From an uncultured Flavobacteriaceae bacterium (GTDB lineage: Bacteria > Bacteroidota > Bacteroidia > NS11-12g > UBA955): a stretch of DNA of 64,000 bases. The notes below the pieces were generated by a model. That model was not told the origin of the DNA. It did no database searches and saw only the letters and a list, made by a program, of their open reading frames with translations. Positions 9,287 to 58,223 of the stretch are shown here, piece by piece. A program made the position numbers and the translations under genes. The stretch spans positions 42-64,041 of the forward strand of contig CAZKOM010000004.1 of NCBI GenBank assembly GCA_964554385.1, in the 5' to 3' direction. Each line of letters opens with the position of its first letter. Position 1 is the first letter of the stretch.

Positions 9287-10309
9287 ATGTTAACGGATAC
9301 TACGGCGGCCTTGGTGGCCAATATTGAGGCGGGTTTATATAAAAATGTTGTAATCACAACGCACCACAAACCGGATGGAGATGCTATGGGATCTTCGTTA
9401 GGATTGTGTGGGTTTTTGCGTACGAAAATTGATACAGTTAGCGTTGTCACACCTACCGATTACTCGGAGAATTTGTTTTGGTTACCCGGAAATGGAGAAG
9501 TTATTGAATGGGAACGGAACGAAGCTGAGGCCAAAGCCCTTGTTGAATCCGCTGATTTAATATTTTGTTTGGATTTTAATCGATTGTCTAGGATTAATCA
9601 AATGGGTGAACTAATTGCCCAATTGACCTGCGATAAAGTGATGATAGACCATCATTTAGAGCCTGAAGGATTTGAGAAATTCACTTTTTGGAATTCTCGA
9701 GCATCCTCTACTTGTGAGTTGGTGTATCGTTGGATTGAACACTATTTTGGATCGGTACATGTGGATGCAGATACAGCTACTTGTTTGTACACCGGATTAA
9801 TGACGGATACAGGTAATTTTCAGCATAACAATACCACCCCCGATACTCTAAGATTAGCTGCGGATTTAATGGAATTAGGCGCAAATCATTTGGATATTCA
9901 CGCTAGAATATATGATGTGTTTAGCGTAAGCAGAAGTAGATTGTTTGGGTACTCATTGTACAAAAAGATGGAAGTGATTCCGGATTGTAGGACAGCCTTG
10001 ATTTATCTATCGGCCGATGAATTAAAAGAATTTGATGTTAAAACCGGTGATACCGAAGGGCTAGTCAATTTTGGTTTGGGATTGAAAGATATCGTACTAA
10101 GTGTTTTGATAATTGATAGAACAGAACGAGTAAAAATGTCTTTTAGAAGCAAAGGGGATTTTGCTGTTAATGAATTTTCCGGAAAATATTTTCACGGTGG
10201 CGGACATAAAAATGCTGCAGGCGGACAAAGTGAAGATACGTTGGAGAATACGGTTGCATTATTTAAAGAGAAAATTCAATTGTATAAAAATGAATTACAA
10301 GCTATTTAA
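9287..10309 (+). CDS. nrnA: bifunctional oligoribonuclease / pAp phosphatase NrnA (DHH-DHHA1)
   Basis: The DHH motif VVITTHHKPDGDAMGSSLGL, and a C-terminal DHHA1 domain with GGGHKNAAG. The start is taken at the internal Met; the ORF track extends it to 9227. Confidence 0.75.
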   Translation: MLTDTTAALVANIEAGLYKNVVITTHHKPDGDAMGSSLGLCGFLRTKIDTVSVVTPTDYSENLFWLPGNGEVIEWERNEAEAKALVESADLIFCLDFNRLSRINQMGELIAQLTCDKVMIDHHLEPEGFEKFTFWNSRASSTCELVYRWIEHYFGSVHVDADTATCLYTGLMTDTGNFQHNNTTPDTLRLAADLMELGANHLDIHARIYDVFSVSRSRLFGYSLYKKMEVIPDCRTALIYLSADELKEFDVKTGDTEGLVNFGLGLKDIVLSVLIIDRTERVKMSFRSKGDFAVNEFSGKYFHGGGHKNAAGGQSEDTLENTVALFKEKIQLYKNELQAI

Positions 10310-11225
10310 ACCCATTCAGATTGCCAGTTTTGGAGTAATTGCTAGTGTTTTACTGTGGCAGTTATCGGCGTGCAATTCAAATAAAAAAACCTCGGGTGGA
10401 ACCGAATATAAATTCATTCAGGGCAAGGAATTAGATAGCATGTATGGTCCAAACCATATGATTTTGATGAAGCATTTGGTTTTAGGGCCAGACGGTGACA
10501 CACTTCAAAATGGTTTTGCTTCAGACTCAATGGAAGAAATTCCCTATCCTGTAGCAGCAAATTCTGATATTAAAGAAGTATTGCAAAAAATGTCGCCCGA
10601 AAGTACCGTTGAAATCTACATACCTACCGATTCATTAAAGCTAAGAATGCCAGGTAATCCTAAGATTGAAGCCTTATCTAGCGGTAAACGTGTAACTTTT
10701 TTAATAAAGGTTTTTAAAGTGCTGGATTTCGCTGAATACGACACCTATCGCAACACCAAAATGTTAACCCGAATCATGGCCGAAAATAAATTCATCGATA
10801 ATTATGCGGCTAATCACGGTGGAGGTTGGTTGTTGGACTCAAGCAGGATGATTAAATTCAGAATAAGTTCTGGTAATGAGACGGCTCAGAAACAGTCGAT
10901 TGAGTATTTGAAATCGTACAGCGACTTATTGAAAAATGCTCCGATTCACAAAGGGAATTCCATTTCTTTTGATTGTGAGGTAAGTACTTTGGATGGGATT
11001 CCAATTGTTAATTCAGTAATGGAAGGTAGAAAGTATAAGGCAATTTATGATGAGCAGTTCTTTGATATTCCTGCATTAAATACGTTGCCCTTTTATGTTC
11101 CTTCTAACTTGAAAGCTGAGTTTTTAGTTACATCAGGAGATGGTTTTGGCGCAGCGGGACGAGTGGGTATTCCATCGTATGCACCATTGCGAGTGCTGAT
11201 TTTTAATGTCGAAAAAATTAAGTAA
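10290..11225 (+). CDS. hypothetical lipoprotein
   Basis: MNYKLFKPIQIASFGVIASVLLWQLSAC is a lipoprotein signal with a lipobox Cys. No family recognised. The ORF-track extension to 10161 overlaps nrnA and is probably spurious. Confidence 0.45.
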   Translation: MNYKLFKPIQIASFGVIASVLLWQLSACNSNKKTSGGTEYKFIQGKELDSMYGPNHMILMKHLVLGPDGDTLQNGFASDSMEEIPYPVAANSDIKEVLQKMSPESTVEIYIPTDSLKLRMPGNPKIEALSSGKRVTFLIKVFKVLDFAEYDTYRNTKMLTRIMAENKFIDNYAANHGGGWLLDSSRMIKFRISSGNETAQKQSIEYLKSYSDLLKNAPIHKGNSISFDCEVSTLDGIPIVNSVMEGRKYKAIYDEQFFDIPALNTLPFYVPSNLKAEFLVTSGDGFGAAGRVGIPSYAPLRVLIFNVEKIK

Positions 11226-42232: not shown

Positions 42233-43897
42233 TTAGTCATTTTTACGAGGGTTGTTGGGTGTTTTATCCAATTGATAAACCAAGAAACTTGGTGATTTGA
42301 AAAAAATTGGCAAATTGTAATTATCACCGCCAAGCTTTTCGAGATTATTATTTACAACTAAGTAATCTGCATTGCAGTTTATTATACTGTCTAGGTGGCT
42401 TTGTGAATGTAATTGATGCGGGAAGCGAACCCAGCCTTTATGGTTTAGAAAATAAAGTTCTTGGGGATTAACACCCGCATTAGAAACAACTAACGATTTA
42501 AGAGGTATTTTTTTCCCGATTGTCTCTAATTCCATTTTGTATTTTTCTGATGGCTTAATGGATAATTCGTGCATCTGATTCAACAGTGCTTCCGAATTGG
42601 CAACAAGTAGAAGGATTGTTATCAAGGTTTTAGCGGAAGTTTTTTTGATTGTAGTTTTTTGGGTAGTTACTGACTGTACTGTTTCTACTTTCTGTTGAAT
42701 ATATTCTAAACCAAGGGCAGCGATAAATGCCATAAAAGGCATAAACGGAATGATGTAGTATGTGTGTTTTGGAAATACATCTCCTGTTTTAATAATGAAT
42801 ATTACGAATACAACTACAAATGCAAAAAACGAAAATTTTACTTTTTTAAAATTATCAATATCAATTAATTGAATATTTTTATTTAAATAATTTGTTGAAT
42901 ATTTGTTTTTGAATAAATAAGCAAGACCTAATAGAAATAATAATAGAGTAACAAATGAATAGAATGCTGTAAAATAGAATTTTTCTAATAGTAGTCGCCA
43001 ATGTGGAACAATTTCTACAAATCCTTCGTAAAGCGATTTAGGATAATAAAGTTGAAAAGATTTATTAAGCTCTGGAACCCGATAAAAATACCATATCAAG
43101 CCGGGAATAATCGAAATTAAGCACGTTGTTATAAATCGGATTTGAATTAAGTTTGGTGGAAATTGATTGGATTTTTTGTATTGTTCTACGAGTTTAGGAG
43201 TTATGAATACCAGTGTTGCTAGCCATGCAATGGCGGGTAACTTGCTTAGAACAGCCAAGGAAAAACTCAAAAATATGTATACAAGGTGATGTGGTTTAGT
43301 TGTGATTAAATACAGCTGTGCTTGTCTAATTCCTATTAATACCAATGCAATTGAAAAGGTATCGGGCATAATTTTTCTACTAAATGAGAACCATACGGAG
43401 AACAGTAAAATTGCGGAGGTATTTTGGGCGATTTGTTGAGAAAAAGCATGCAATAAGAATTGATACAAGGCCCAAACTCCCCAGGTGGAAATAAGTAAAT
43501 TTATCCATCTACCCTGCCAGTGTTGGTATCCGATGACAGAATTAAAAAAAGCGATTATGGCTTGAAAAATGGGAAATTCTGAACCAATGAAACCTTCATT
43601 ATTTCCGGAAAAATCGATTTGTGGATTGAAAAGGTTAAATCCATTGTTTTGTAAGTTTCGAGCGATCATGGCCGTAACGGTTTGTCGCCAATTATGTCCA
43701 ATTTCTAGTGGTGGATTGGTTATACCAATGCATTGAATAACTAAGAATACTACTAAAAGTATGTGTATAAATTGAATTTTATGATAAAAGGGTTTGAAAT
43801 TCACGGTAAGATTACCTTGATTTAGGTGCTTCGCAATTATACGTTTAAAATTCAAAACAATGCTGTTTCGTGGACTTGCTTTGTTGTAAATTGCCAT
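42233..43897 (-). CDS. polytopic membrane protein, GT-C-like (ArnT/PMT-type glycosyltransferase candidate)
   Basis: 554 aa. About 11 TM helices over the first ~400 aa, followed by a ~130-aa soluble C-terminal domain. This is the GT-C architecture, but no catalytic motif was confirmed. Confidence 0.3.
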   Translation of the reverse strand: MAIYNKASPRNSIVLNFKRIIAKHLNQGNLTVNFKPFYHKIQFIHILLVVFLVIQCIGITNPPLEIGHNWRQTVTAMIARNLQNNGFNLFNPQIDFSGNNEGFIGSEFPIFQAIIAFFNSVIGYQHWQGRWINLLISTWGVWALYQFLLHAFSQQIAQNTSAILLFSVWFSFSRKIMPDTFSIALVLIGIRQAQLYLITTKPHHLVYIFLSFSLAVLSKLPAIAWLATLVFITPKLVEQYKKSNQFPPNLIQIRFITTCLISIIPGLIWYFYRVPELNKSFQLYYPKSLYEGFVEIVPHWRLLLEKFYFTAFYSFVTLLLFLLGLAYLFKNKYSTNYLNKNIQLIDIDNFKKVKFSFFAFVVVFVIFIIKTGDVFPKHTYYIIPFMPFMAFIAALGLEYIQQKVETVQSVTTQKTTIKKTSAKTLITILLLVANSEALLNQMHELSIKPSEKYKMELETIGKKIPLKSLVVSNAGVNPQELYFLNHKGWVRFPHQLHSQSHLDSIINCNADYLVVNNNLEKLGGDNYNLPIFFKSPSFLVYQLDKTPNNPRKND

Positions 43898-43904
43898 TCA
43901 TTTT

Positions 43905-46772
43905 ATGAGTTCGGGTAAATTATTTTTATTGGATGGAATGGCTCTGATTTATAGAGCTTTTTTCGCTTTTAGTCAGAATCCAAGAATCACTAGCAAGGGT
44001 TTAAATGCAAGTGCGATGTTTGGGTTTACCAATACGCTATTGGATATTTTAAACAAACAAAAACCAACTCATATTGCGGTGGTATTTGATACTGCGGCTC
44101 CAACACATCGACACAAAGAATTTGAGGCGTATAAGGCGCATCGTGAAGAAATGCCTGAAGATCTTGCGAAGAGTATCCCGTATATTTTCAAAATAATTGA
44201 AGGATTTAATATCCCCGTAATTACTATGGATGGGTATGAAGCGGATGATATCATCGGTACCTTAGCATGGAAAGCAGGGGATGTTGGCTTGGATGTTTTC
44301 ATGATGACACCCGATAAGGATTTCGGCCAGTTGGTTAGGCATAATGTGAAAATATACAAACCCGGTAGAATGGGTTCGCCCGATGAAATTTTGGGTGTTG
44401 AGGAGGTTTTGAAGAAGTGGGAAATAACTGAAATTAAGCAGGTTATTGATATTTTAGGATTATGGGGCGATGCTTCGGACAATATTCCGGGAGTACCGGG
44501 AGTGGGTGAGAAGACAGCAAAGAAATTGATTGCAGAGTATGGGAGTATTGAGAATATATTAGAAAACACAGACAAGCTCAAGGGCAAAATGCAAGAAAAT
44601 ATGATTGCCTTTGCAGAGCAAGCGAAAGTGAGTAAATGGTTAGCTACTATTGATACTCAGGTACCCGTAGATTTGGATTTAGTGAGTTTGCAGTTAGATC
44701 CTGTTAATGCTGAAAAACTAACCGAGGTGTTTGAGGAGTTGGAATTCAGGACTTTGGCCAAGCGAGTTTTAGGGGCTTCTGCAACAACTGCAGCGAGTGA
44801 GGAAGACGGAGCATCTAGACCTAAATCAGTAAAAAAAGCGCTGCCATCCAATCCATTGCAGGGTTCGTTGTTTGATAGTCCTTCTTCATCAGGTTCTTCG
44901 GCTTCCGTTGGCGAAGCCAATGAAGAAATTAACATGGATGAGGAAGGTAGCATGGTGCCGAAACTGACTATTACAGATGTTCCCCATGAGTATAAAACTG
45001 CAATTACAGCTGAAGAAAGACGGTATTTAATTAGTGAGTTAGAAGCCGCAGAATATTTCTGTTTTGACACGGAGACTACCAATGTTGAATCATTGCAGGC
45101 AGAGATTGTAGGATTGTCGTTTTCTACAAAACCTCATACGGCCTGGTACGTTCCGATTCCTTCAAATACGGAAGAAGCGTCTGCAATTTTACAGGAATTT
45201 GCTGGGGTTTTATCTTCATCGAAACTAAAAATTGCTCAAAATATTAAGTACGATGTGGCGGTACTTAGGAATTACGGAATAGAGGTTGCAAATCCTTGGT
45301 TTGATACGTTGTTGGCTCATTACCTTTTAGAACCTGACAAGAGGCATAACATGCAGGTTTTAAGTGAGGACTATTTAAACTATTCACCCATTTCTATTGA
45401 AACCTTAATAGGGAAAAAAGGTAAAAATCAAGGAAATATGCGGGATGTTTCGGTTGAACTTATTGCAGAGTATGCGGCCGAAGATGCGGATATTACCTTA
45501 CAATTATATTTGATATTTAAGGATTTAATAGAGCAACAAGGGGTAAAGGAATTGTTTGAGACAGTTGAAATTCCTTTAGTTCATGTGTTGGAGGATATGG
45601 AGCGAAATGGTATTGCTTTGGACGTAGATTTCTTGAAGCAATATAGCAGCGAGTTGCTAACTCAAATGCAGTTGGTACAACAACGGATTTTTGAATCGGC
45701 GGGATTTGAATTTAATATTTCTTCACCTCAACAGGTTGGTAAGGTTTTGTTTGAACAGTTACAATTATTGGATAAACCCAAAAAGACGAAGACAGGTCAG
45801 TATCAAACAGATGAAGAAACTTTGTTGAGTTTGGTGGGAAAGCATACGATTGTACAAGATATTTTAGATTTCAGGGCCTTACAAAAGCTTAAATCTACCT
45901 ATGTAGATGCTTTGCCAGAATTGGTGGATAAGGAATCGGGGCGGGTACACACTCACTTTAACCAAGCTGTTGCAGCAACAGGAAGACTAAGTTCTCAAAA
46001 TCCCAACTTGCAAAATATACCCATAAGAACAGAGTTAGGCAGGGAGATTCGAAAAGCATTTATCGCTGGTGATCCTGGAAAGGTTCTACTGAGTGCTGAT
46101 TATTCTCAAATTGAATTAAGAATCATTGCTCATATTTCCTCAGATCCTGGAATGAAGGAGGCTTTTCAAATGGGATATGATATTCATACAGCGACGGCGG
46201 CTAAGGTTTGGGGAGTGAATATCGATGAAGTGGATAAAGAGATGCGCAGAAAAGCTAAAACGGTGAATTTTGGAATCATTTATGGGATCTCGGCGTTTGG
46301 ATTAAGTCAACGTGTGGGTATTAGCAGAGGTGAAGCCAAGGAGATTATTGATAATTATTTCCGGGAATTTGGTGGAGTTCGAGATTACATGGACGAGGCG
46401 GTACGAAAGGCGCAGGAAAACGGATATGTGGAAACCATTTTAGGTAGACGAAGGTATATTAGGGATATCCATTCTAGAAATGCAGTAATGCGTGGTTTTG
46501 CAGAAAGAAACGCCATTAATGCTCCAATTCAAGGCAGTGCTGCGGACATGATCAAGGTGGCCATGATCAAGATACATGATTGGCTAAAATCGGAAAAATT
46601 GTCTACGCGTATGTTATTGCAGGTGCATGACGAATTGGTATTTGACGTACCGAAAGAGGAGTTGACGATTGTACAATCCAACATCTGTAGCCTAATGGAA
46701 ACAGCCATGCCTTTGTCCGTGCCTGTACTGGTGGAATCAGGTATAGGTGGCAATTGGTTAGAGGCGCATTAA
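43905..46772 (+). CDS. polA: DNA polymerase I
   Basis: 955 aa. 5'-3' exonuclease domain (LLDGMALIYRAFFA), 3'-5' exonuclease domain and polymerase domain with motif A (LLSADYSQIELRI), motif B (RRKAKTVNFGIIYG) and motif C (QVHDELVF). Confidence 0.95.
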   Translation: MSSGKLFLLDGMALIYRAFFAFSQNPRITSKGLNASAMFGFTNTLLDILNKQKPTHIAVVFDTAAPTHRHKEFEAYKAHREEMPEDLAKSIPYIFKIIEGFNIPVITMDGYEADDIIGTLAWKAGDVGLDVFMMTPDKDFGQLVRHNVKIYKPGRMGSPDEILGVEEVLKKWEITEIKQVIDILGLWGDASDNIPGVPGVGEKTAKKLIAEYGSIENILENTDKLKGKMQENMIAFAEQAKVSKWLATIDTQVPVDLDLVSLQLDPVNAEKLTEVFEELEFRTLAKRVLGASATTAASEEDGASRPKSVKKALPSNPLQGSLFDSPSSSGSSASVGEANEEINMDEEGSMVPKLTITDVPHEYKTAITAEERRYLISELEAAEYFCFDTETTNVESLQAEIVGLSFSTKPHTAWYVPIPSNTEEASAILQEFAGVLSSSKLKIAQNIKYDVAVLRNYGIEVANPWFDTLLAHYLLEPDKRHNMQVLSEDYLNYSPISIETLIGKKGKNQGNMRDVSVELIAEYAAEDADITLQLYLIFKDLIEQQGVKELFETVEIPLVHVLEDMERNGIALDVDFLKQYSSELLTQMQLVQQRIFESAGFEFNISSPQQVGKVLFEQLQLLDKPKKTKTGQYQTDEETLLSLVGKHTIVQDILDFRALQKLKSTYVDALPELVDKESGRVHTHFNQAVAATGRLSSQNPNLQNIPIRTELGREIRKAFIAGDPGKVLLSADYSQIELRIIAHISSDPGMKEAFQMGYDIHTATAAKVWGVNIDEVDKEMRRKAKTVNFGIIYGISAFGLSQRVGISRGEAKEIIDNYFREFGGVRDYMDEAVRKAQENGYVETILGRRRYIRDIHSRNAVMRGFAERNAINAPIQGSAADMIKVAMIKIHDWLKSEKLSTRMLLQVHDELVFDVPKEELTIVQSNICSLMETAMPLSVPVLVESGIGGNWLEAH

Positions 46773-49096
46773 TTATAGAATTTCCACTGAACTCCTACTC
46801 GGAAACGGTAGGGCTGAATGGGATAGTAATTAACAAAATCATATCGGGGATTAAATCCTGGCATGTAGTTCAATTCATTAAAATGCTCCAATTTGAAATA
46901 GATGATAGCCGATTGAATTTGGGCTGTAAGGTAGGCATCCAGTTGGAGGTAATTTCCTGATCTGTTGCTTTGTTGCAAATTATAATAGAAACTTAAGGCA
47001 TCGGGACGATATTCCACAGGGGTAAAAGAACCAATATACCAGGCATTTAAACCAATGCGCGTTCGCATGGTTTTTTTAAACAAATAGTATTCAAGATGAA
47101 CATCAGTTAAACTTGTTAATTGAGGGATTCCAAAATTGAATAAATTGTTTATACTATCTGACTTAAATGACTGAAATGAAATTAATTGACTTATTTCAAA
47201 ATGATTTATTTTTTGATTAATGGAGAAATTAACGGCGGTAAACGGAACCTGAAACAACCATTGAGATGGTTGAGCACTGTTTAACCTCAAAATGGGATTG
47301 GTGATAGAGCCAATTTGAAATTCAATATTTGAAATTGTGTAGTTTTTGTTTTTACGTTTTTTATCCCTGGCATCGATTATTTCATTGGGATTGAAGGTGG
47401 CCTCAATAGCAACTTTTGGAATATATGTAAGACGCAGCGATACTGAGTTTTTACCAATTTGTGAAAAGTTATTGTTGTATTGGAAGTGATTGGAGTAAAA
47501 TTGTTGGTCGAATAAGTTGGCCGATTGTCTTTGAGAAAGGGCCTTAAACGTTACACTAAAGGGATAATGAAAATGGGGTATTCTCATTCCATCAATAATA
47601 TAATCGATGCTATCTACATTTGATTTAATTTTTCGGGTACTATCATTGGCGGATTGTGGGGTTTGAGGAATATTTTTACCCGTTAAAATCGATGGTGAAG
47701 ATGATTGTTGGATGGGTGCTTGTTTCAATTCCTGTTTCAATTTCCGAATAATAGGTGTTACGCTTACAAGGCCAATTTCGTAGGCACCTTGATTGTAACC
47801 GCTTACCGTGTAATTTGCATGTATGTAATTCCTTATGCCTGAAGTTGGTAAACTTATATTGGTATGAATGGCTGAGGATCTAAATTGTTTTGTCCCAGTT
47901 CCGTTGAAGTTGGGCTGTAATGATTCGGTGGTTGCCCGTTGGGTTGTCCAATTAAGTGTAACGTATCGGTTAGGATTTCTTTCACTGTTTAACTGAACAC
48001 CCATTTTATGGGTGCCGAGTCTCCAGTAAGAGGAATCGTTGATTTTTTTATCGTATTGATAATATGAGGAGCCGTAGTAATTGGTATCTCGCTTTGTATC
48101 GGCATACTGAAAACGGGTTTTCTCCCAGACGGATTCTTGGGTAATTTTAAGTGTTTTAGACAGAGCGTATTGGTTGGCAATAAGATGACTATTTAGGCCA
48201 TAAAATGATTTTGCTGGGCTGCTTAATCGGGATTCAAACGGACCAAAAGATCTAATTCCCCATGCAGTGGTATCTATTGTAGGCCAATATTGATTTACGG
48301 CGGAGGGGTTTAACCCACCGTATTCATTTCTGCGTAATCGGTTCCATGTAACGATGGTGAATTGCGAGAATTTACCGTTTTTGCTGAGGTAGTTACTTCC
48401 AATTTGCGTATTTCTTTGGGTGTTGTTTTGGCCCGCCCCGAGGATTAGATCTTCGTTTAACTGGCTTTTATAATCCAACGTTACGTTCCAAGTTGGGGAG
48501 AAATTTTGGGTATGGATGGCGTCAAAAACGAAGGTTCTACCATTGCCTTGGGTGTACTTCAATAAACTCAAAGGAGCTTTTGCCTTGTAAAATCGCATGG
48601 ACTTGGCGGTTTTTAAAGTAGTTGCAATTGGATTTAGACCCACCTCCATTTGATTGGATAGACTTACAGGAGCTAATAAAAGTCCAGGTGATCCCGGTTC
48701 CCCCAAATTAATCCAAGCCCCATTTTGTCCAGGGAATAGAGTATTACTGGATAGGGGGTTACTGGAGTAGTATATTACATTGTTATAGTTTAAGGTGTCA
48801 CCTCGATAAAAGTCATTGGGCTGAACACTTAGAATATTGTAACTGGATTCAAGTGGGTATTGCGGTAATTTTTTCTTTTTTTTCAGCTGTGCAATGGAAT
48901 CCTTTTTAGATATGGGCGCGTCTTCTTTGGCTTCCATTCCCTTGAATTTGCTTAGGTCTATTGCGGGCTGTGCAAATGCCGATCCAGTGGTTAATACGAA
49001 GCCAATTAATAAACCAAACCAGAATTTTTTGGTTATTAATTTTAAGAGTTTCGTTGCAAATGGTTTATGCTTGTGCACGGGCTTACAAATTTGCAT
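46769..49096 (-). CDS. hypothetical outer-membrane protein (large beta-barrel candidate)
   Basis: 775 aa. Signal peptide ...FWFGLLIGFVLTTGSAFAQ. Rich in Asn/Tyr/Gln with alternating hydrophobic patterns, and the C-terminus is YRFRVGVQWKFYN. No family recognised. Confidence 0.4.
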   Translation of the reverse strand: MQICKPVHKHKPFATKLLKLITKKFWFGLLIGFVLTTGSAFAQPAIDLSKFKGMEAKEDAPISKKDSIAQLKKKKKLPQYPLESSYNILSVQPNDFYRGDTLNYNNVIYYSSNPLSSNTLFPGQNGAWINLGEPGSPGLLLAPVSLSNQMEVGLNPIATTLKTAKSMRFYKAKAPLSLLKYTQGNGRTFVFDAIHTQNFSPTWNVTLDYKSQLNEDLILGAGQNNTQRNTQIGSNYLSKNGKFSQFTIVTWNRLRRNEYGGLNPSAVNQYWPTIDTTAWGIRSFGPFESRLSSPAKSFYGLNSHLIANQYALSKTLKITQESVWEKTRFQYADTKRDTNYYGSSYYQYDKKINDSSYWRLGTHKMGVQLNSERNPNRYVTLNWTTQRATTESLQPNFNGTGTKQFRSSAIHTNISLPTSGIRNYIHANYTVSGYNQGAYEIGLVSVTPIIRKLKQELKQAPIQQSSSPSILTGKNIPQTPQSANDSTRKIKSNVDSIDYIIDGMRIPHFHYPFSVTFKALSQRQSANLFDQQFYSNHFQYNNNFSQIGKNSVSLRLTYIPKVAIEATFNPNEIIDARDKKRKNKNYTISNIEFQIGSITNPILRLNSAQPSQWLFQVPFTAVNFSINQKINHFEISQLISFQSFKSDSINNLFNFGIPQLTSLTDVHLEYYLFKKTMRTRIGLNAWYIGSFTPVEYRPDALSFYYNLQQSNRSGNYLQLDAYLTAQIQSAIIYFKLEHFNELNYMPGFNPRYDFVNYYPIQPYRFRVGVQWKFYN

Positions 49097-49134
49097 GAAA
49101 TTCGGTGGTTATGTGATTTTTTTTAATTTTATCG

Positions 49135-49623
49135 ATGGAAAATGTATTTCTTTACAACATGGAATGGTCTGTGGTAGTAGGAATCGTTTTGGTTTCTACC
49201 GTTAAGTATGCAATTGGAGTAGGAATGGCCGTTTTGTCGATTTCTTCCCCGTGGCTGGGATTTTTATTTACCTCTTTAGGTGGAATTTTGGGAGTAAGCA
49301 TTTGGGTGTATTGGGGAGAAAAATTGCAATCGTTGTATTTTGATTATCGCAATCGTAGAGGTGTTATTTCAAAAAGATTTTCCAAAAAAAATAGGTGGTT
49401 GGCGCGGGTAAGATCGGAGGGGGGATTGCCAATTATCGCATTATTGGGTCCAGCAATAATTAGTTTGCCTGTTGCTTGTTTTATTGCCACGGGTATGGGT
49501 ATTAGTAGGTGGAAAGTATGGAGAGCAATCAGTATTTCGGTTTTATTGTGGGGGGTGATGTTTTTCGGATTGTTGATTTTCTTTGATATAGATTTATCCC
49601 ATTATTTCCGACATATTTTCTAG
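49135..49623 (+). CDS. hypothetical small membrane protein
   Basis: 162 aa with 4 TM helices and a basic cytoplasmic loop (YRNRRGVISKRFSKKNRWLARVR). No family recognised. Confidence 0.35.
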   Translation: MENVFLYNMEWSVVVGIVLVSTVKYAIGVGMAVLSISSPWLGFLFTSLGGILGVSIWVYWGEKLQSLYFDYRNRRGVISKRFSKKNRWLARVRSEGGLPIIALLGPAIISLPVACFIATGMGISRWKVWRAISISVLLWGVMFFGLLIFFDIDLSHYFRHIF

Positions 49624-49679
49624 TTTTTTTGACTTCTGGGATTACTCATTGTAAATTGTGCGATAATTCATTGATTAGC

Positions 49680-51728
49680 ATGAGTAAACGATTTTATGCC
49701 ATTGCATTTATTGTAGTGTTGGTAGTTTCGGCGTGTAAGCGGGAACCAATTTCTTGGGATAATCGGGTGGCGGCGCCATTGTTTTCTACGCAGTTTCGAT
49801 TGGGAGACATTAACAATGCGAATTTGCAACCCAATTTGATTGATTCCAGTTATCGATTGGTGTATGAAAATTTGGTTTACAGTTACAGGATGGAGAATGT
49901 TCGGGCATATGATACCGGATTATCTGTGTTCTTTACGTTAAATCGGTTAAAGCTGAATGATCAGAAAATTAATCGTGCTATTACCTTGGGTGAAATTAAT
50001 CCCATTTTTAAATTACTTGATGGTCAGACGGCATTAGTTCCAGCTCAAAATCAGCAGAATTTATCACCGGTGCAAATTGATGCAAGTGCTTTCTTTGAAA
50101 CGGCAACTTTGGATAGTGGTTATATGGATATTTCATTAACCAATTCTTTGCCTGTTCGGGTTAAATTATTGGTTTTTGAATTGTTGAATGCCGAAGATAA
50201 CAGCGTAGTTGCTTTGGATTCATTTCGGGATATTGACACGGGAACTACCGCTACTCGACGTATTGATTTAGCTAACAAAACGGTATCAAAAAATTTGTTA
50301 GGTAGTATTAAGTTATTGCAAACAGAAGCCAGTAATGGACCGGTATTGATTGAGGCCAATAAAGGAGTTAATGTAGAATTGGCGGTAACCCGATTGCGTC
50401 CAAGAAGAGCTATTGCGGCATTTCCTTCCCAGACGGTCATTTCTCAAGATGAGGGATTAACAGTATTTATGGGTGGAGCGGATGTGAAATATTTTAAAAC
50501 CAAGCGAGGTAGATTACGAATCAATTTGGTCAGTACAATTGAGGAGGACATGACGATGTTTTTCAAAATACCATCGGCCAGTAAAGATGGAAAAGTTTTA
50601 GAGTCTACCGTTAAGTTGCCGGGTGCTGCCAAGGGATCTGTTTCTACGCGTTTTGAGGATTTCGATTTAACGGATTATTTAATTGATTTTCGGGGAAAAA
50701 ATCCGGATGTTAAGGACACGGTAAATACGTTTCACCAGATATTATTGGTAACTCTAGATAGTTCGGGAAGAAAAGTGGAAGTGGGATTAAACGATAGTAT
50801 CCGAATTGAATATCGAATGGAGGGAATGTATCCCGATTATGCGATTGGATATTTGGGAAATTCTGTAGTTCAAACTGGGCCTCAGAAAGTGCCATTTTCA
50901 TTATTCAAAGGAGTGAACTCTGATTTGAAGTTGAAGGATTTTAAAGTGAGTTTGATTTTGAAAAACAGCATTGGGGCAGATGGCAGACTTCGATTGAATC
51001 AATTGAAGGGGGAAAATGTGTTTTCTCAGAAAGTGGAACCACTGAGAGCAGATGTATTGGGACAGGATTTATTTGTTACATCTCCACCATTTAAACGGGA
51101 TGCATATACCGTTACAGAGGTGGTATTGGATTCGAGCAATTCTAATATTCGTACGTTTATAGAAAATTTGCCTCAACTGTTACATTATGATTTGGATTTG
51201 GAAACCAGTCCAAACGGCAACGTGAATAATTGGCAGGATTTTGTTTTTGACAATAGTAAGGTAGATGTGATTTTGAAGGTGGAAGCACCGGCAGAGTTGT
51301 CTTTTTCTGAGCTTGTATTGCGGGATACCCAGTCGTTGGATTTAAGTAATTTAGGTGATTTAAGCAGGGTGAAATCAGCTTTAATGCGTGTGAAAGCGGA
51401 TAATGGTTTTCCTTATGGTGCCCAATTGCAGCTTTGGTTGTTGGATGCCAATATGGTTAAATTGGATAACTTGGATATTTCTTCAGAAACAAACCGGATA
51501 GAACCTGGAATTGTATTACCCGATGGAACACCGGTAGAATCGGTGGAAAGTCAATTGGAGCTTGCTTTACCAAGACGAAAAATTTCGGTATTACAGCAGG
51601 CGAAGTTTATTGCTATCGAGGCGAAATTGATAAGCGATGGACAGATGAAGTCGTTGAATAGTGCCTACGGTTTGCAACTTGCCACCACGTTGGACTGCGA
51701 ATACGAAGTAAGGGTTGGAGGGAAATAA
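49680..51728 (+). CDS. hypothetical lipoprotein
   Basis: Lipoprotein signal MSKRFYAIAFIVVLVVSAC. About 680 aa with no recognisable domain. The ORF-track start is 49629. Confidence 0.4.
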   Translation: MSKRFYAIAFIVVLVVSACKREPISWDNRVAAPLFSTQFRLGDINNANLQPNLIDSSYRLVYENLVYSYRMENVRAYDTGLSVFFTLNRLKLNDQKINRAITLGEINPIFKLLDGQTALVPAQNQQNLSPVQIDASAFFETATLDSGYMDISLTNSLPVRVKLLVFELLNAEDNSVVALDSFRDIDTGTTATRRIDLANKTVSKNLLGSIKLLQTEASNGPVLIEANKGVNVELAVTRLRPRRAIAAFPSQTVISQDEGLTVFMGGADVKYFKTKRGRLRINLVSTIEEDMTMFFKIPSASKDGKVLESTVKLPGAAKGSVSTRFEDFDLTDYLIDFRGKNPDVKDTVNTFHQILLVTLDSSGRKVEVGLNDSIRIEYRMEGMYPDYAIGYLGNSVVQTGPQKVPFSLFKGVNSDLKLKDFKVSLILKNSIGADGRLRLNQLKGENVFSQKVEPLRADVLGQDLFVTSPPFKRDAYTVTEVVLDSSNSNIRTFIENLPQLLHYDLDLETSPNGNVNNWQDFVFDNSKVDVILKVEAPAELSFSELVLRDTQSLDLSNLGDLSRVKSALMRVKADNGFPYGAQLQLWLLDANMVKLDNLDISSETNRIEPGIVLPDGTPVESVESQLELALPRRKISVLQQAKFIAIEAKLISDGQMKSLNSAYGLQLATTLDCEYEVRVGGK

Positions 51729-51774
51729 GTAGTTTAATAAAAATTGTATTTGAAGAATGATCAATGAAGCTAGG

Positions 51775-53463
51775 ATGAAATATCAGTTGGGTGTTCTGAT
51801 AGGAATGGTTTTAATAGGATTTTTAAATGAAATCAAGGCAGATGGAATAGTAACCAAGAAGGGTTTGGTAGAAAATAAAGGATGTAGGATAGAGTCTTTT
51901 TGGAATTATTGTTCTGATAGCACAGATAATCCACAGTCTAGTATGGACACAATGCCGGTTACAACAATTACAAAAAATGAATTTGGCTATACGAGTTGGT
52001 ATATTCCTTATTCATTGCGGTTAAGTCCTTCTGTTCAGGTATATACGGGAAGTAACGTACTGCCTCAAGCGTTGTTAAATAAAATCGTTTTTGGAGGCTA
52101 CATGGACCCTGAAATTATAGGTAAGGCGGATGGTAGATTGAAGCCAAATAATCGTTTGGGGTTTGAACAGTATAATGAATTGGGTTTCTACTATAAGGCG
52201 AATGGATCCGAATATTATGGATCGGGGTATCGTACAAACAGGGAATCGTTAGGATCATCAGAAATTGTCACCCAAGAAAATCCTAATAAAATCACGACTT
52301 GGGCGGATCGTGGTTTGCTCATTTCCGGTGATAATAAACGTGTGAAAGCGGGTACAAACGTACTAAACAACCAGTCCGATGGAAGTCAAAAGAAAAAAAT
52401 CTCGGTATGGATGGGGTTAAATTATTCGGTTTTGGCTGGTGCTCGATTTACGGATGATGCTTATCGTGCGTTGTTACGGGGTAATGGATATTATCTTGGA
52501 AAGACGTTGGATGTTGGAAATAATCGATTTAAACAGCTGGGTTATGCGGGTGCTGATTTTGTTTTTTTTAAAAACGGCGATAACGACAATTCCTTGGATC
52601 CATTGAAATCCAAGACGATTAGGATTCCAATTACTTGGATGGTTTCGGTTAGAAATTTAAGCAGTTTTCAGTTGTTGCAAACGGATGAGCTTGAGTTATT
52701 TACCTCGCCCGCTGCGGATTCATTGAGTTTGGATGGTAGATTTTATCAAGTTGGCTTGAAGGTCGGTAGTATTAATCCCGGTATAACTGTTGGTTTTAAT
52801 CAATTTTTATTAATTGGTAAGAGTGGATCTTTGCGTACATCACTGGATTTTTCCTTGGAAGATTTTGGTTTTTATTACCTACAAAACGCCAATGTACTAT
52901 CCAGAGGATATGCTTGGGATGCCAATGGTAAGGGTTTCAGCCCTAGCTCGGAATCCTCTACGCTGCCAGTGTACTTGAAACAGGCAAGCGTTACCACGGG
53001 AAACTTGCAATTGGGCAATTGGTTTACCCAACAGGTTGATACCGCAGAAGCGCGATTACGGGTTGTAGAACAAGTGCGATCGGGATGGATTATGTCGCCA
53101 TTTAAAGTTTCTATTAAGACCAATATATTCACGTTAAGTTATCGCAACCTTCCTGGAATGATGCCCTTGTTTTCGGTATATCCTGGATTACGAACAAGAC
53201 AGGTATATCGTTTTTTTGCAGAGGTATTTAATCTTAAAAAGGAATATTTGCGAAAAGAATTAGGAGCTAACAGCAAACTATTTATGGGTTTCTCCGTAGG
53301 CGGTTTTGATAAGGTTAACTGGCGATTGGGGTATGAAACCGACTACCTATGGTTGGGAAAAGCGGTACGATTCCGTGCTGATATTGTTGGGGTAGAGGCG
53401 CTTTTAGCACCCAAAACATATCATGGTTTTGGGTTTAACCTATCGGCATTGGCTTTGTTCTAA
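51775..53463 (+). CDS. hypothetical outer-membrane beta-barrel protein
   Basis: Signal peptide MKYQLGVLIGMVLIGFLNEIKA. Gly/Tyr-rich alternating strands, and the C-terminus ...GFGFNLSALALF ends with Phe, the beta-barrel signature. Confidence 0.4.
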   Translation: MKYQLGVLIGMVLIGFLNEIKADGIVTKKGLVENKGCRIESFWNYCSDSTDNPQSSMDTMPVTTITKNEFGYTSWYIPYSLRLSPSVQVYTGSNVLPQALLNKIVFGGYMDPEIIGKADGRLKPNNRLGFEQYNELGFYYKANGSEYYGSGYRTNRESLGSSEIVTQENPNKITTWADRGLLISGDNKRVKAGTNVLNNQSDGSQKKKISVWMGLNYSVLAGARFTDDAYRALLRGNGYYLGKTLDVGNNRFKQLGYAGADFVFFKNGDNDNSLDPLKSKTIRIPITWMVSVRNLSSFQLLQTDELELFTSPAADSLSLDGRFYQVGLKVGSINPGITVGFNQFLLIGKSGSLRTSLDFSLEDFGFYYLQNANVLSRGYAWDANGKGFSPSSESSTLPVYLKQASVTTGNLQLGNWFTQQVDTAEARLRVVEQVRSGWIMSPFKVSIKTNIFTLSYRNLPGMMPLFSVYPGLRTRQVYRFFAEVFNLKKEYLRKELGANSKLFMGFSVGGFDKVNWRLGYETDYLWLGKAVRFRADIVGVEALLAPKTYHGFGFNLSALALF

Positions 53464-53493: not shown

Positions 53494-53895
53494 CTATTTC
53501 ATTTTGTTTACTAAGGCCATCAGACCGTCGAAGTCGGTATAGCCTAAGGAACGACCAATTACTTGACCTTTTTTAAAGAAAATTACGGTAGGGTAGCCTT
53601 CCAAGCGATATCGATCGGCAATATCCATTTGGGCTTCGGCATCAACTTTTAGTACCGTAACGATATCGGAATGTTTTTCTCTCACCTGTTCAATAAAGGG
53701 GGCCATTTTCTTACAAGGTCCACACCAGGTAGTGTAAAAATCAACCATTACTAGTTTATCACCGGCGATAACTTTATCGAATTCAGCGGTAGTGATAGGT
53801 TCTCCGGAGTGATTTGATTGTTGGCATTGGCTTTGAGTGGCCACGGTAAAAGCTGCGATAAGCAATACAAATCCAAGGGTTAAGAACTTTTTCAT
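53494..53895 (-). CDS. periplasmic thioredoxin-family protein
   Basis: Signal peptide MKKFLTLGFVLLIAAFTVA, then WCGPC active site (FYTTWCGPCKKMAP). Confidence 0.8.
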   Translation of the reverse strand: MKKFLTLGFVLLIAAFTVATQSQCQQSNHSGEPITTAEFDKVIAGDKLVMVDFYTTWCGPCKKMAPFIEQVREKHSDIVTVLKVDAEAQMDIADRYRLEGYPTVIFFKKGQVIGRSLGYTDFDGLMALVNKMK

Positions 53896-53948
53896 GAGGA
53901 ATTTATTTAACACAAAGGTACTACGGGAAGTTTGTATATTTTTGAAGA

Positions 53949-54914
53949 ATGCCTCAGGCTCACGAAAATACCGGAATATTGATATCTGTGGTTGTGCCCA
54001 TTTTTAACGAAGAAATGAACGTTAGAAAATTGTACAATCGGATTGATGATACTTTGATTTCAATGGGAAAGAGCTATGAAATTATCTTTGTAAATGATGG
54101 TTCTAGGGATGCTTCAATGCCCATTATTATTTCGATGGCTGAAGAAAATCCTTCGGTGAAATACATTGATTTAAGTAGAAATTTTGGACATCAAATTGCT
54201 ATAACGGCGGGTATCGAGCATGCAGTTGGTGAGTATATAGTAATCATGGACGGGGATGGACAGGATCCACCGGAGTTAATCCCTTCACTTTTTTCTAAAG
54301 CATGTGAAGGATATGAGGTGGTTTATGCGAAACGCAAAACGAGGCAGGGTGAAACGTGGATGAAGAAGATAACGGCTAAGGTGTTTTATCGGTTGTTGTC
54401 TAAAATGACGAAAGTTAATATTCCGTTAGATACCGGTGATTTCAGAATGATACACCGCAAAATACAGCGGGTATTGAAACACATGCCAGAGCAGGACAAG
54501 TATTTACGAGGTCAGATAGCATGGATAGGTTTTAATTCTACGTTTGTAGAATATGATCGTGAGGAGAGAATGGGAGGCGAAACCAAATTTAGTTATTCGA
54601 AGATGTTGAAATTTGCGATGGATGGAGTGGTTAGCTTTAGCAGTTGGCCGTTGAAATTGGCTACTATTTTTGGATTTTCTGTTTCTTTGGTAGCTTTTGG
54701 AATGATTATTTATTCCATTTATCAGAAGTTTTTTGGATACACTATTCAAGGTTGGACTTCATTGCAGATTTCCATTTTGTCTCTTGGCGGGGTGCAACTG
54801 ATTGGTATGGGCATGTTGGGGGAATACGTTAGCAGAATGAGTGAGAATGTAAAAAATAGGCCCACCTATGTTGTAAAGAATAGCAATATCGCCTCGATAG
54901 AAGATAAAGAATGA
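53949..54914 (+). CDS. GT2 polyprenyl-phosphate glycosyltransferase (GtrB/ArnC-like)
   Basis: ISVVVPIFNEE...IIFVNDGSRD...IVIMDGDGQD (DxD) catalytic domain, plus two C-terminal TM helices. This is the GtrB/DPM1-type architecture. Confidence 0.8.
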   Translation: MPQAHENTGILISVVVPIFNEEMNVRKLYNRIDDTLISMGKSYEIIFVNDGSRDASMPIIISMAEENPSVKYIDLSRNFGHQIAITAGIEHAVGEYIVIMDGDGQDPPELIPSLFSKACEGYEVVYAKRKTRQGETWMKKITAKVFYRLLSKMTKVNIPLDTGDFRMIHRKIQRVLKHMPEQDKYLRGQIAWIGFNSTFVEYDREERMGGETKFSYSKMLKFAMDGVVSFSSWPLKLATIFGFSVSLVAFGMIIYSIYQKFFGYTIQGWTSLQISILSLGGVQLIGMGMLGEYVSRMSENVKNRPTYVVKNSNIASIEDKE

Positions 54915-54915
54915 G

Positions 54916-56658
54916 TTGAGCATGCGTAAATTATTGCGATATTGGGCAGAAGACCGTTTGTTTTTTATCGGTTGGTTTTTTTTACAATGGATCTTGGGTT
55001 GGGGCGAGCGCTTAAAACTTGGCCCATTTGGTATGCATCAAGGGGCTCAAGCCGACAGGGCAGGTGTGGCTTGGAATTTTTACCACGAGACGTTGAATTT
55101 GTTTTTGCCCAGAGTGATGGAAAACCGCGCGGCAGAAGGAATTGCAGGCATGGAATTCCCCATTATTTCTTATGTGGTTGGACTTGCTTGGCGAGTTTTT
55201 GGTTTTCATGATTGGATGTACCGTTTGGTAGTTGGTTTGATTGTTACGGCTGGCTATTGGAGTATATGGCGATTGTTAAAGGAAATTGGCATTATTGGAT
55301 TGGGTAGGGTGGCGATTGTTTTACTATTATTTCTTTCACCCATTATGGTGTTTTACACTTGGAATTTTCTTCCGGATCCTGCTGCGTTGGGTTTTGTTTT
55401 TATCGGTTTGTATCATTGGCATCGTTGGCGTATAAATGCAAATGGTGAAGTGAGATCAAGTCCTTTTTGGGTTTGGTTTTTCTTCTCATTAGCTGGATTA
55501 ATCAAGGTAAGTATGCTAATTCCGTTTTTGTCTTTGATTACTTTGGAGTACATTAAATCGGATGTTCTAAGTGTTATTCGCGGATTTGGAGGTAAGCAAA
55601 AATTGAAGGTAAAAAACACGGAATTTGGTGAAACTATTGTGTTGGACGATGTCGAAAACCCAATGGGAAATGGGCAGCGATTTGGCTTTTTACCTATTTC
55701 AACTTGGCGATTAGCCATAGTTTATTTAGGAGTAATTGCAACAGTTGTTGTCTGGTATGTTTATTCTGCCTGGTTAACTAAATCTACATGGAACATCCAT
55801 TTCATTCAATCCATTAATCCGGTTGGGTCTCTGAATGAGTTAGTTGATATTTTAAACTTTGTTGAAAGTGTATGGTTGGATAGTTTATTTTTTGGTAGTG
55901 CTTTGTTTTGGTTGTTGTTTTTATGGGTATTTTCATTGTTGAAAAAGCAGGGGAATTGGGAAATTTGGGATATTCTCAGTGTGATTAATTTTTTTGGTTT
56001 CTTGTGTTTCTTTTTACTGTTTTCAAGGCAGTTTCGATTCCATGATTATTATTTGTTAACGGGTTGGCCATTTGTGTTTTTAGCATTGGTCGTGATTTTT
56101 AGAACACAATTATGGCAACGAGCGGTATTTGTTGGTTTTACTGGAATAGTTTCAATATTTTTCTTCGTTTACTATCCTATCCGAGGGATTGGCCACTCTT
56201 CTAAAATGCTGAGTTATCGCACAGAGCGCGGTAATTATTATTGTCAGAATGTGATTAAAGACGAACAGGACTTGGCGGACATTGGCTCTTGGTTGAATCA
56301 GCGAGGAGATCCAAATTATACAGCGGAGGTTTTGGTTGTTGGCGATCCATCTCCTTCAACAGCTTTGTATTATTTGCACCGCAAAGGATTAAGACTGGCA
56401 CCGGATTTCGATTCGGTTGCTTGCAGAGGCATTTGGAATAAACGGATAATGTTGGAATCAGGTATTTCTGTGGATAGTTTATGCTGGCAGTGGGAGTGGG
56501 ATTATCGATATGGTAAGCGAAGAAAATTGGATTTTTTAGTAGTTGAAAAAGGTTATATTGATACTTTAGGTATATCATCTTATATTGTTGATATAAAAAA
56601 CGATAAGAATTTGGTATATTCAAGTGGAAATTGGAACTTATACCAAATAAGTAAATAG
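54916..56658 (+). CDS. polytopic membrane protein, probable GT-C glycosyltransferase partner of the upstream GT2
   Basis: 580 aa with about 11-13 TM helices. Starts 2 nt after the GT2 stop (operonic). No catalytic motif confirmed. Confidence 0.35.
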   Translation: MSMRKLLRYWAEDRLFFIGWFFLQWILGWGERLKLGPFGMHQGAQADRAGVAWNFYHETLNLFLPRVMENRAAEGIAGMEFPIISYVVGLAWRVFGFHDWMYRLVVGLIVTAGYWSIWRLLKEIGIIGLGRVAIVLLLFLSPIMVFYTWNFLPDPAALGFVFIGLYHWHRWRINANGEVRSSPFWVWFFFSLAGLIKVSMLIPFLSLITLEYIKSDVLSVIRGFGGKQKLKVKNTEFGETIVLDDVENPMGNGQRFGFLPISTWRLAIVYLGVIATVVVWYVYSAWLTKSTWNIHFIQSINPVGSLNELVDILNFVESVWLDSLFFGSALFWLLFLWVFSLLKKQGNWEIWDILSVINFFGFLCFFLLFSRQFRFHDYYLLTGWPFVFLALVVIFRTQLWQRAVFVGFTGIVSIFFFVYYPIRGIGHSSKMLSYRTERGNYYCQNVIKDEQDLADIGSWLNQRGDPNYTAEVLVVGDPSPSTALYYLHRKGLRLAPDFDSVACRGIWNKRIMLESGISVDSLCWQWEWDYRYGKRRKLDFLVVEKGYIDTLGISSYIVDIKNDKNLVYSSGNWNLYQISK

Positions 56659-56720: not shown

Positions 56721-58223
56721 ATGAAAAAGATTGTCGTTGTATTTCCTCATCAGCTATTTTATGCTTTTCGTTTTTGGGAGGCAATGGACGAGGTGGTTTT
56801 GATTGAGGAATACTTGTTTTTTAAGCAGTTTAATTTTCATAAGCAAAAGTTGATTTTTCATCGAAGCAGTATGCGTCAATTTGCTGATTTTCTTGTTTCT
56901 GAGGGTGTTAAAACTACATACATAGAATCCAATAATCCTTCTTCTGATATTCGTGTTTTTTTGCAAGGAATGAAGGGTTTGGAGCGGCAGTTGAATTTTA
57001 TCGATCCTACCGATAATTGGTTAAGACGAAGAATCGAACATAGTGCGGCGACATGTTCTTTGGAAATAACGTGGATTGAAACACCTAATTTTATCTATAC
57101 GCAGAAGGAAAATGCGGTTTATCAACTAGGACGTAAAACGTATTTTCAGACGGATTTTTATCAATACAATCGAAAGAATAGAGGATGGTTGATGACTGCT
57201 GATGGAAAACCAATTGGTGGTAAGTTTAGTTTTGATACGGAGAATCGAAAATCATTTAAAGGACAGGTTTCGGTGCCAAGTCCTACTTTTATTCCAGTAA
57301 ATACCTATTTGGAAGAGGCAAGAGATTATGTGGATAGAAATTTTGGGAACAATTTGGGTTTGTTGTATTGGGATAAACATACATTTTATCCTACAAATAG
57401 AGAGGGTGCATTGGTTTGGCTAGATGAATTTTTCAAGAAACGTTTTAGGTTGTTTGGGGATTTTGAAGATGCCATCGTTACTGAATCGGGTAAAGAGTTT
57501 ATGTTTCATTCGGTGTTATCCCCGTTAATTAATGTTGGGTTATTGAGTCCTCAGGAGGTAGTTGAAAGGGCCATTGAATATGCCACTTCTCATGAGTTGC
57601 CATTGAATTCACTAGAAGGTTTTGTTAGACAAATTACGGGTTGGCGGGAATTCATTCGTCACGTTTATGAGGATTTAGGTACCCGTCAAAGAACCAAGAA
57701 TTATTGGGGATTTACCAGATCCATACCGGTATCTTTTTACACGGGTGAAACGGGCATTGAACCAGTGGATTTTGCCATAAAGAAAGCATTGAAATACGGG
57801 TATAATCACCACATTGAGCGATTGATGATTTTAGGCAATTTTATGTTGTTGTGTGAATTTAATCCTGATGATGTCTATCAATGGTTTATGGAGATGTATG
57901 TGGATGCATACGATTGGGTGATGGTTCCTAATGTTTATGGTATGATATGTTTTGCCGATGGGGGTTTGATGACTAGTAAACCGTATATATCCGGTTCCAA
58001 TTATTTGGTGAAAATGGGAGGTTTTAAGAAAAGCACGGGAGCTGGGGGATGGCAAGCTATTTGGGATGCTTTATTTTGGCGATTTATGCATAAACAACGG
58101 GGATTCTTCTCGAGTAATCCGCGATTAGGGATGTTGTTACGCACATGGGACGGGATGTCGGAAGAGAAGCGAAATAACCATTTGCAGATTGCTGAAAACT
58201 ATTTACAATCTTTAAATCAATAA
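56721..58223 (+). CDS. cryptochrome/photolyase-family protein (COG3046 photolyase-related type)
   Basis: 500 aa. The N-terminal alpha/beta domain begins MKKIVVVFPHQLF. The C-terminal FAD-binding-like region contains HHIERLMILGNFMLL and WFMEMYVDAYDWVMVPNV. Confidence 0.55.
   Translation: MKKIVVVFPHQLFYAFRFWEAMDEVVLIEEYLFFKQFNFHKQKLIFHRSSMRQFADFLVSEGVKTTYIESNNPSSDIRVFLQGMKGLERQLNFIDPTDNWLRRRIEHSAATCSLEITWIETPNFIYTQKENAVYQLGRKTYFQTDFYQYNRKNRGWLMTADGKPIGGKFSFDTENRKSFKGQVSVPSPTFIPVNTYLEEARDYVDRNFGNNLGLLYWDKHTFYPTNREGALVWLDEFFKKRFRLFGDFEDAIVTESGKEFMFHSVLSPLINVGLLSPQEVVERAIEYATSHELPLNSLEGFVRQITGWREFIRHVYEDLGTRQRTKNYWGFTRSIPVSFYTGETGIEPVDFAIKKALKYGYNHHIERLMILGNFMLLCEFNPDDVYQWFMEMYVDAYDWVMVPNVYGMICFADGGLMTSKPYISGSNYLVKMGGFKKSTGAGGWQAIWDALFWRFMHKQRGFFSSNPRLGMLLRTWDGMSEEKRNNHLQIAENYLQSLNQ

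Follow-up and report, generated by a model that had tools for sequence, protein, structure and literature searches.

In a 64,000-nucleotide (nt) stretch of contig CAZKOM010000004.1 from an uncultured Flavobacteriaceae bacterium (referred to here as the window), four consecutive open reading frames (ORFs), designated A, B, C, and D, encode predicted envelope proteins. The conserved unit among them is, on balance, best described as a two-gene module, C followed by D, whose products, a lipoprotein and a β-barrel, would form one outer-membrane complex rather than part of a three-part trans-envelope machine. A first-pass annotation, which had proposed the plus-strand trio B-C-D, or all four genes, as a single undescribed system, located the ORFs correctly in coordinates, strand, and length; the gaps it gave, 5 nt between B and C and 28 nt between C and D, follow from the mechanically assigned starts. 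The genes and their relevant parts are as follows.

49680-51728, plus strand: C, a predicted 682-amino-acid (aa) lipoprotein with an all-β structure model; first gene of the conserved pair
49680-49736, plus strand: predicted signal peptide and lipobox of C; the codon for Cys19 lies at 49734-49736
51757-53463, plus strand: D, 568 aa, a divergent relative of DUF5723 and predicted outer-membrane β-barrel; second gene of the conserved pair
51757-52060, plus strand: hypervariable 5' part of D, encoding its signal peptide and N-terminal ~100 residues
49135-49623, plus strand: B, a membrane protein of 162 aa that has four hydrophobic segments as well as a basic loop; a neighbor specific to the clade
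46769-49096, minus strand: A, a 775-aa predicted outer-membrane protein with a signal peptide and a Pfam Porin_10 match; transcribed divergently from B

Judged from their sequences, A, B, C, and D are real genes rather than chance ORFs, since homologues of all four are present in 73 genome loci and the ratio of nonsynonymous to synonymous substitution rates (dN/dS) of C is only 0.013. The longest mechanical ORF of C (49629-51728, 699 aa) begins with TTG, but the biologically sensible start is taken to be the ATG at 49680, which supplies a signal peptide and lipobox. The protein read directly from the sequence at this ATG begins MSKRFYAIAFIVVLVVSAC, a database protein is identical to the 682-aa form, and the B-C gap becomes 56 nt. 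Thus, the earlier description of C as a lipoprotein stands, while its length of 699 aa gives way to 682 aa.

Gene order within and beyond the window's clade

The loci fall into two sets. The first consists of 73 loci of the window's own clade, a freshwater clade of Bacteroidota, in which the identity of C to the window protein is 48-99%; the nearest of these, L001, is a "Flavobacteriales bacterium" metagenome-assembled genome (MAG) with ~88% DNA identity to the window. Within this clade the order A (minus), B, C, D is kept together with MsrB, PolA, and a block of PMT_2, GT2, and thioredoxin (Trx) genes, ~17 kb in all. In tblastn comparisons across the clade, C is ~50-65% identical, D 24-33%, A 25-39%, and PolA 64-72%. 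Because the whole neighborhood is syntenic, housekeeping genes included, the linkage of A and B to the pair in these genomes carries little weight. D follows C in every own-clade locus that extends beyond C except three (L021, L032, and L068), in which the ORF downstream of C has neither a significant tblastn match to D nor a Pfam match.

The second set comprises 12 independent, distant contexts, in which C is present at ~25-30% identity among unrelated flanking genes. In 10 of the 12 (L073, L074, L075, L077, L079, and L082-L086), a D-like gene lies directly after C, and in nine of these the two frames overlap by up to 17 nt or are separated by up to 19 nt. In the tenth, L073, the ATG of D is 182 nt downstream of C, and the frames overlap only if a TTG start is used. 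A B-like ORF or a Porin_10, A-like ORF is present at none of the 12, so that B, C, and D are not found together across lineages. A and B are therefore neighbors of C-D in this lineage only and lie outside the conserved pair. The synteny across Bacteroidota that the first-pass annotation had named as a check exists for C-D, an association reaching far beyond the window's lineage, and is restricted to a single clade for B and A; its grouping of an uncharacterized lipoprotein with a predicted outer-membrane barrel holds, but its extension of that grouping to the trio or to all four genes does not.

The distant loci also bear on the idea that B, as an inner-membrane component, would join C and D in one trans-envelope machine like Lpt, Lol, or the accessory complexes of gliding and type IX secretion (T9SS). 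The order and strand of B-C-D are kept in essentially every clade locus that extends upstream of C, the intergenic gaps are short, B is conserved with its four hydrophobic segments and basic loop, and the sandwich domains of C, if arranged end to end, could in principle span the periplasm. Nevertheless, such a machine is distinctly unlikely, given that no B-like ORF accompanies the distant C genes, that clade-wide synteny extending to PolA and MsrB makes the linkage of B uninformative, and that there is no match to the Lpt, Lol, Gld, or Por families. With B outside the conserved unit, a two-component outer-membrane module is the better description.

At the other extreme, C and D might be functionally unrelated and adjacent by happenstance. 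Two distant C homologues do lack a neighboring D, and DUF5723 proteins without a C-like partner exist, for example in Brachyspira (bioRxiv 10.1101/2025.01.03.631275). However, the two genes adjoin in 10 of the 12 unrelated contexts and their frames abut or overlap in nine, which makes coincidence very improbable.

One distant locus carries an additional gene: at L082:6001-11554, the one DUF5723 gene comes after a tandem pair of C-like genes, of 691 and 695 aa, and the module can thus carry duplicated lipoprotein subunits.

Protein D as a divergent DUF5723 relative

D itself has no direct match in Pfam or NCBIfam at an expectation value (E) of 1 or below. Its family emerges from its relatives. 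In a Chitinophagales MAG (L073), a C homologue of 30% identity is followed by an ORF that matches Pfam DUF5723 (PF18990) at E = 2.3e-29, the only one of 34 aligned D-like proteins with such a match. A hidden Markov model (HMM) of D orthologues from the window's clade, made with the L073 sequence left out, matches the L073 ORF at 83.6 bits; the DUF5723-positive ORFs of L073, L075, L079, L083, L084, and L085 score 50-84 bits with this model and that of L082 scores 20 bits. The D-clade HMM matches the ORF downstream of all ten paired distant C homologues (E from 2e-34 to 4e-6), and seven of these ten ORFs have Pfam DUF5723 matches, one merely faint.

On these profile comparisons, D is classed as a divergent, unusually long relative of DUF5723. 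Like bona fide members of the family, which the orthologue profile matches at 50-113 bits (20 bits for the L082 ORF), it has an N-terminal GSNxLP...FGG motif, a signal peptide, and a C-terminal aromatic residue. It differs in its length, 568 aa being 100-150 residues more than the typical 403-448 aa, and in that neither D nor its clade orthologues match the Pfam model directly. The C-terminal Phe (...NLSALALF) noted in the first-pass annotation is present, as are a signal peptide and many amphipathic, β-like segments, a crude amphipathicity scan giving 27 overlapping segments of this kind. A search of PDB sequences with the D profile returned nothing meaningful.

Since DUF5723 itself has no known function, membership explains no mechanism for D. 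In the searchable literature the family appears in two places only: a P. gingivalis DUF5723 protein has been detected in outer-membrane vesicles (PMC12937337), and a Brachyspira member has been modeled as a barrel of 16 strands that resembles the CymA channel (bioRxiv 10.1101/2025.01.03.631275). A literature search covering DUF5723, Porin_10/PF14121, DUF4621, 4H3W/BDI_1231, and PG2173 found no functional study.

Protein C as a lipid-anchored, all-β protein

The lipobox of C is VVSAC, with a cysteine, Cys19, that is invariant in alignments of 30 and 69 homologues; a simple lipobox pattern is present in 114 of 148 wider relatives. By these sequence features C is classed as a lipoprotein. Across the family, the Cys is followed by the consensus [KR]-[KR]-[DE]-x-[DE], the window protein having CKREP, and two consecutive acidic residues follow the Cys in only some members. 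In Bacteroidota lipoproteins, the acidic surface-export signal that follows the Cys is of the K-(D/E)2 or SDDDD type.

The structure model of C has a mean predicted local distance difference test (pLDDT) score of 78 and is all-β, matching jelly-roll and β-sandwich domains; the structures matched include carbohydrate-binding modules, PNGase F, BcsB, and the surface glycan-binding protein (SGBP) SGBP-B of B. thetaiotaomicron. C can thus be pictured as a lipid-anchored chain of several jelly-roll or sandwich domains, their number being judged from the secondary-structure trace. The conserved residues among 69-148 relatives (~22-40% identity) are mostly Gly, Pro, Asn, Trp, and Asp, together with the short motifs AxAxFPxQ, DS, and NSN, and include no obvious catalytic set.

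C has no Pfam or NCBIfam match, and a PDB sequence search with its profile yielded nothing meaningful; for this protein the earlier statement that no domain could be recognized is correct. Nor do the distant relatives of C and D match NCBIfam. DUF4621 was rejected as an identity for C because the similarity is too weak (best E = 1e-3, in 3 of 30 C members). The family is nevertheless large. An exhaustive profile search found 4,060 cluster representatives at E of 1e-3 or below, 869 of them at 1e-30 or below; among the best 150 of the 4,060, almost all are full length (~640-730 aa), and all of the source names seen read "hypothetical protein". The exhaustive search was used for C because a word-indexed homologue search undercounted, with 176 matches for C and 18 for D; repeating the latter with the D alignment added nothing.

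The O-glycosylation sequon of Bacteroidota is D-(S/T)-(A/I/L/V/M/T). Two stretches of C match it, DTV at residues 346-348 (50715-50723) and DSI at residues 372-374 (50793-50801), and the DS of the latter is kept in at least 85% of ~148 relatives.

Divergence and selection

A comparison of the window with L001, at a synonymous divergence (dS) of ~0.4-0.5, gave the following dN/dS values.

C: 0.013
thioredoxin: 0.008
GT2: 0.05
D: 0.24

By this measure D evolves ~20 times faster than C. A local hotspot of divergence lies at the start of D: across 51661-52060 (L001:1800-2200) DNA identity to L001 is 60-69%, and in the five preceding 200-nt intervals, inside C, it is 91-96%. Database variants of D exist at 97%, 88%, and ~81% protein identity to the window protein, and in the 81%-identity alleles the N-terminal 75 residues have been replaced. 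This hotspot of 5' divergence suggests allelic replacement of, or diversifying selection on, a surface protein. The combination of a slow C with a fast D would fit a barrel whose exposed loops diversify while its partner is held under tight constraint.

A proposed role for the pair, and other readings

The reading frames of C and D adjoin almost everywhere and often overlap, which suggests joint production and assembly into one complex of the outer membrane. Within it, D would be the membrane-embedded part, a channel or anchor with variable surface loops. C would be the partner under tight constraint and, given a rate of evolution as low as that of housekeeping enzymes, would most probably lie on the periplasmic side. 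The complex probably handles a glycan or glycoconjugate as a housekeeping task of the envelope rather than a nutrient-specific one. This step, which draws on the likeness of the C domains to carbohydrate-binding and PNGase F-type jelly rolls and on the channel-like DUF5723 model, is the weakest of the proposal. A bolder version, which is a long shot, would make C-D an unrecognized core envelope machine of Bacteroidota, with C as a periplasmic handling subunit and D as a conduit, for example as a route for a lipid-linked glycan, a glycolipid, or surface lipoproteins across or at the outer membrane.

Several points weigh against the two-gene complex or the placement of its parts. The association of C with D is deduced from gene order, and two of the 12 distant C homologues (L081:6001-8190 and L087:3274-5412) have no D within 5-6 kb. 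The model of D, built from a shallow alignment, has a pLDDT of 30, leaving the barrel architecture to the family assignment and the amphipathicity scan. The membrane face of C is ambiguous, as the [KR][KR][DE]x[DE] sequence after its Cys partly resembles the K-(D/E)2 export signal. Its jelly-roll likeness is generic, with no conserved ligand-binding or catalytic residues found, and the genomic contexts of C-D give no consistent functional clue.

If C were instead exposed at the surface, it could bind glycans while D served as a passive diffusion channel, so that the pair would take up oligosaccharides or other bulky nutrients in the manner of an SGBP or SusE/F working with a CymA-like pore. 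The resemblance of the C domains to carbohydrate-binding modules, PNGase F, and SGBP-B, the likeness of the DUF5723 model to CymA, and the K/R-(D/E)2 sequence that follows the lipobox Cys in some members, like a surface-export signal, are all in keeping with this. However, the constraint on C is thioredoxin-like, which is atypical for surface nutrient-binding lipoproteins; no glycoside hydrolases, SusC/D genes, or regulators adjoin the pair in any context; and the listed relatives of C vary little in length or architecture. Uptake of this kind is accordingly judged unlikely.

A role in type IX secretion, with D as an outer-membrane anchor or shuttle (compare PorP/SprF and PorV) and C as an adaptor, appears quite improbable. 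Genes for proteins with the T9SS C-terminal domain Por_Secre_tail do lie within ~5 kb of C in five of the 12 distant contexts (L079:4042-6189; L086:2019-4874; L085:1-2045 and 9349-10407; L081:8856-11720; L087:8108-9991), twice directly upstream and on the same strand, and a PorP_SprF gene is near the pair in L077. In addition, the UniProt accession of the P. gingivalis DUF5723 protein is adjacent to that of a T9SS-cargo protein, adjacency of the genes being merely inferred from this. Yet cargo genes are numerous in these genomes, such that five of 12 is not clearly above chance (roughly estimated at ~25%), there is no match to a Por, Gld, or Spr family, and C and D themselves both lack the T9SS C-terminal domain. 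The two-gene outer-membrane module, with its partner lipoprotein probably periplasmic, is thus the preferred account.

Neighboring genes

Within the window, no paralogues of B, C, or D were found elsewhere. As annotated, the start codons of A and B are 38 nt apart (49097-49134) and divergent; the second Met of B, at 49159, is its probable start, as in the L002 orthologue, and on that basis the promoters of A and B have to overlap one another or coding sequence. A promoter and terminator scan gave the same counts as shuffled sequence and is uninformative on operon structure.

The claim that none of the four proteins has a recognizable domain, which is correct for C, fails for A as it does, through profiles, for D. 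A matches Pfam Porin_10 (PF14121) at E = 3.1e-36, with 125.7 bits against a curated cutoff of 27 bits, and so belongs to this family by score, although the best-scoring stretch is confined to its C-terminal third (residues 508-775) and A is unlinked to C-D outside the window's clade. No characterization of the Porin_10 family was found in the literature. The family assignments of A and D therefore count only formally against the first-pass annotation, Porin_10 and DUF5723 alike being families of unknown function.

For B, a hydropathy scan confirms the four hydrophobic segments and the basic loop (11 K/R versus 2 D/E) described earlier, and similarity to known domains stays below threshold. VTT_dom matches at E = 0.0019 (19.1 bits, compared with a gathering threshold of 33.9) and Sm_multidrug_ex (PF06695) at E = 0.0057 (17.7 bits, compared with 30.7). 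Although weak, both matches are near full length, and VTT_dom is matched at E < 0.1 by 6 of 21 B orthologues; a likeness to DedA/VTT proteins or PF06695 has against it that both scores fall below the gathering thresholds and that B has no PDB relative.

No NCBIfam model matches A, B, C, or D. As the first-pass annotation had held, models for PorV/PorP-SprF, GldJ, SusD, Lpt, and Lol have no match among the four in Pfam or NCBIfam at E of 1 or below, nor among 30 C and 34 D homologues at E of 0.1 or below.

Downstream of D, a GT2 glycosyltransferase gene is followed by one for a PMT_2 (GT-C) membrane glycosyltransferase (53949-56658, plus strand). The GT2 protein has full-length similarity, below curated cutoffs, to the polyprenyl-phosphate sugar transferases PgfS and ArnC. 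Upstream of PolA there is another PMT_2 gene (42233-43897, minus strand). By sequence, the GT2 and PMT_2 genes look like a periplasmic glycosylation module, which B, if truly DedA-like, could serve rather than C-D. Elsewhere, a GT2 gene is found near the C-D pair in L073 and another ~5 kb upstream in L084. The PMT_2-GT2-Trx block (window 53494-56658) is inverted in most clade members (L004-L072 compared) relative to the window, L001, and L002, indicating an inversion with a breakpoint just after D. Beyond the glycosyltransferases, at 56721-58223, lies a DPRP/cryptochrome-photolyase-related gene that is kept in L002 and is seemingly unrelated to the pair.

Comparison with known systems

Outer-membrane biogenesis in Bacteroidota, a phylum of importance in gut, soil, and freshwater habitats, has unassigned steps. 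The C-D pair is no surprise in itself, since many outer-membrane pairs are known at the level of a domain of unknown function (DUF) and nothing here points to a specific substrate. With ~4,000 cluster representatives of C, purifying selection as strong as that on thioredoxin, and a dedicated partner predicted to be a barrel, C-D is nonetheless a well-defined and widespread target. The combination of a lipoprotein with a barrel is familiar; for this particular pair, no characterized homologue, Pfam model for C, or literature was found.

Among individual structures, C resembles PDB 4h3w (BDI_1231, a putative secreted protein of Parabacteroides distasonis), but at ~15% identity, without detectable sequence homology, and over ~300 of its 682 residues; 4h3w is itself uncharacterized. 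C differs from PNGase F-type jelly rolls in that no PNGase catalytic residues were identified in it. A possible known equivalent, the CHU_1276-1280 cluster of C. hutchinsonii, was dropped because one published summary describes an SGBP-B-like protein in it that binds cellulose, a judgment made with no sequence comparison.

The closest parallels are LptD-LptE, SusC-SusD, and BcsB-BcsC. D is far smaller than LptD and SusC and, by Pfam, has neither a TonB plug nor an OstA domain, and no sequence or profile relationship links C-D to any of the three. The resemblance is architectural only: in each, as in C-D, a lipoprotein (or a periplasmic jelly-roll protein) is encoded together with an outer-membrane barrel, and in the case of BcsB it includes jelly-roll domains that are among the structural matches of C.

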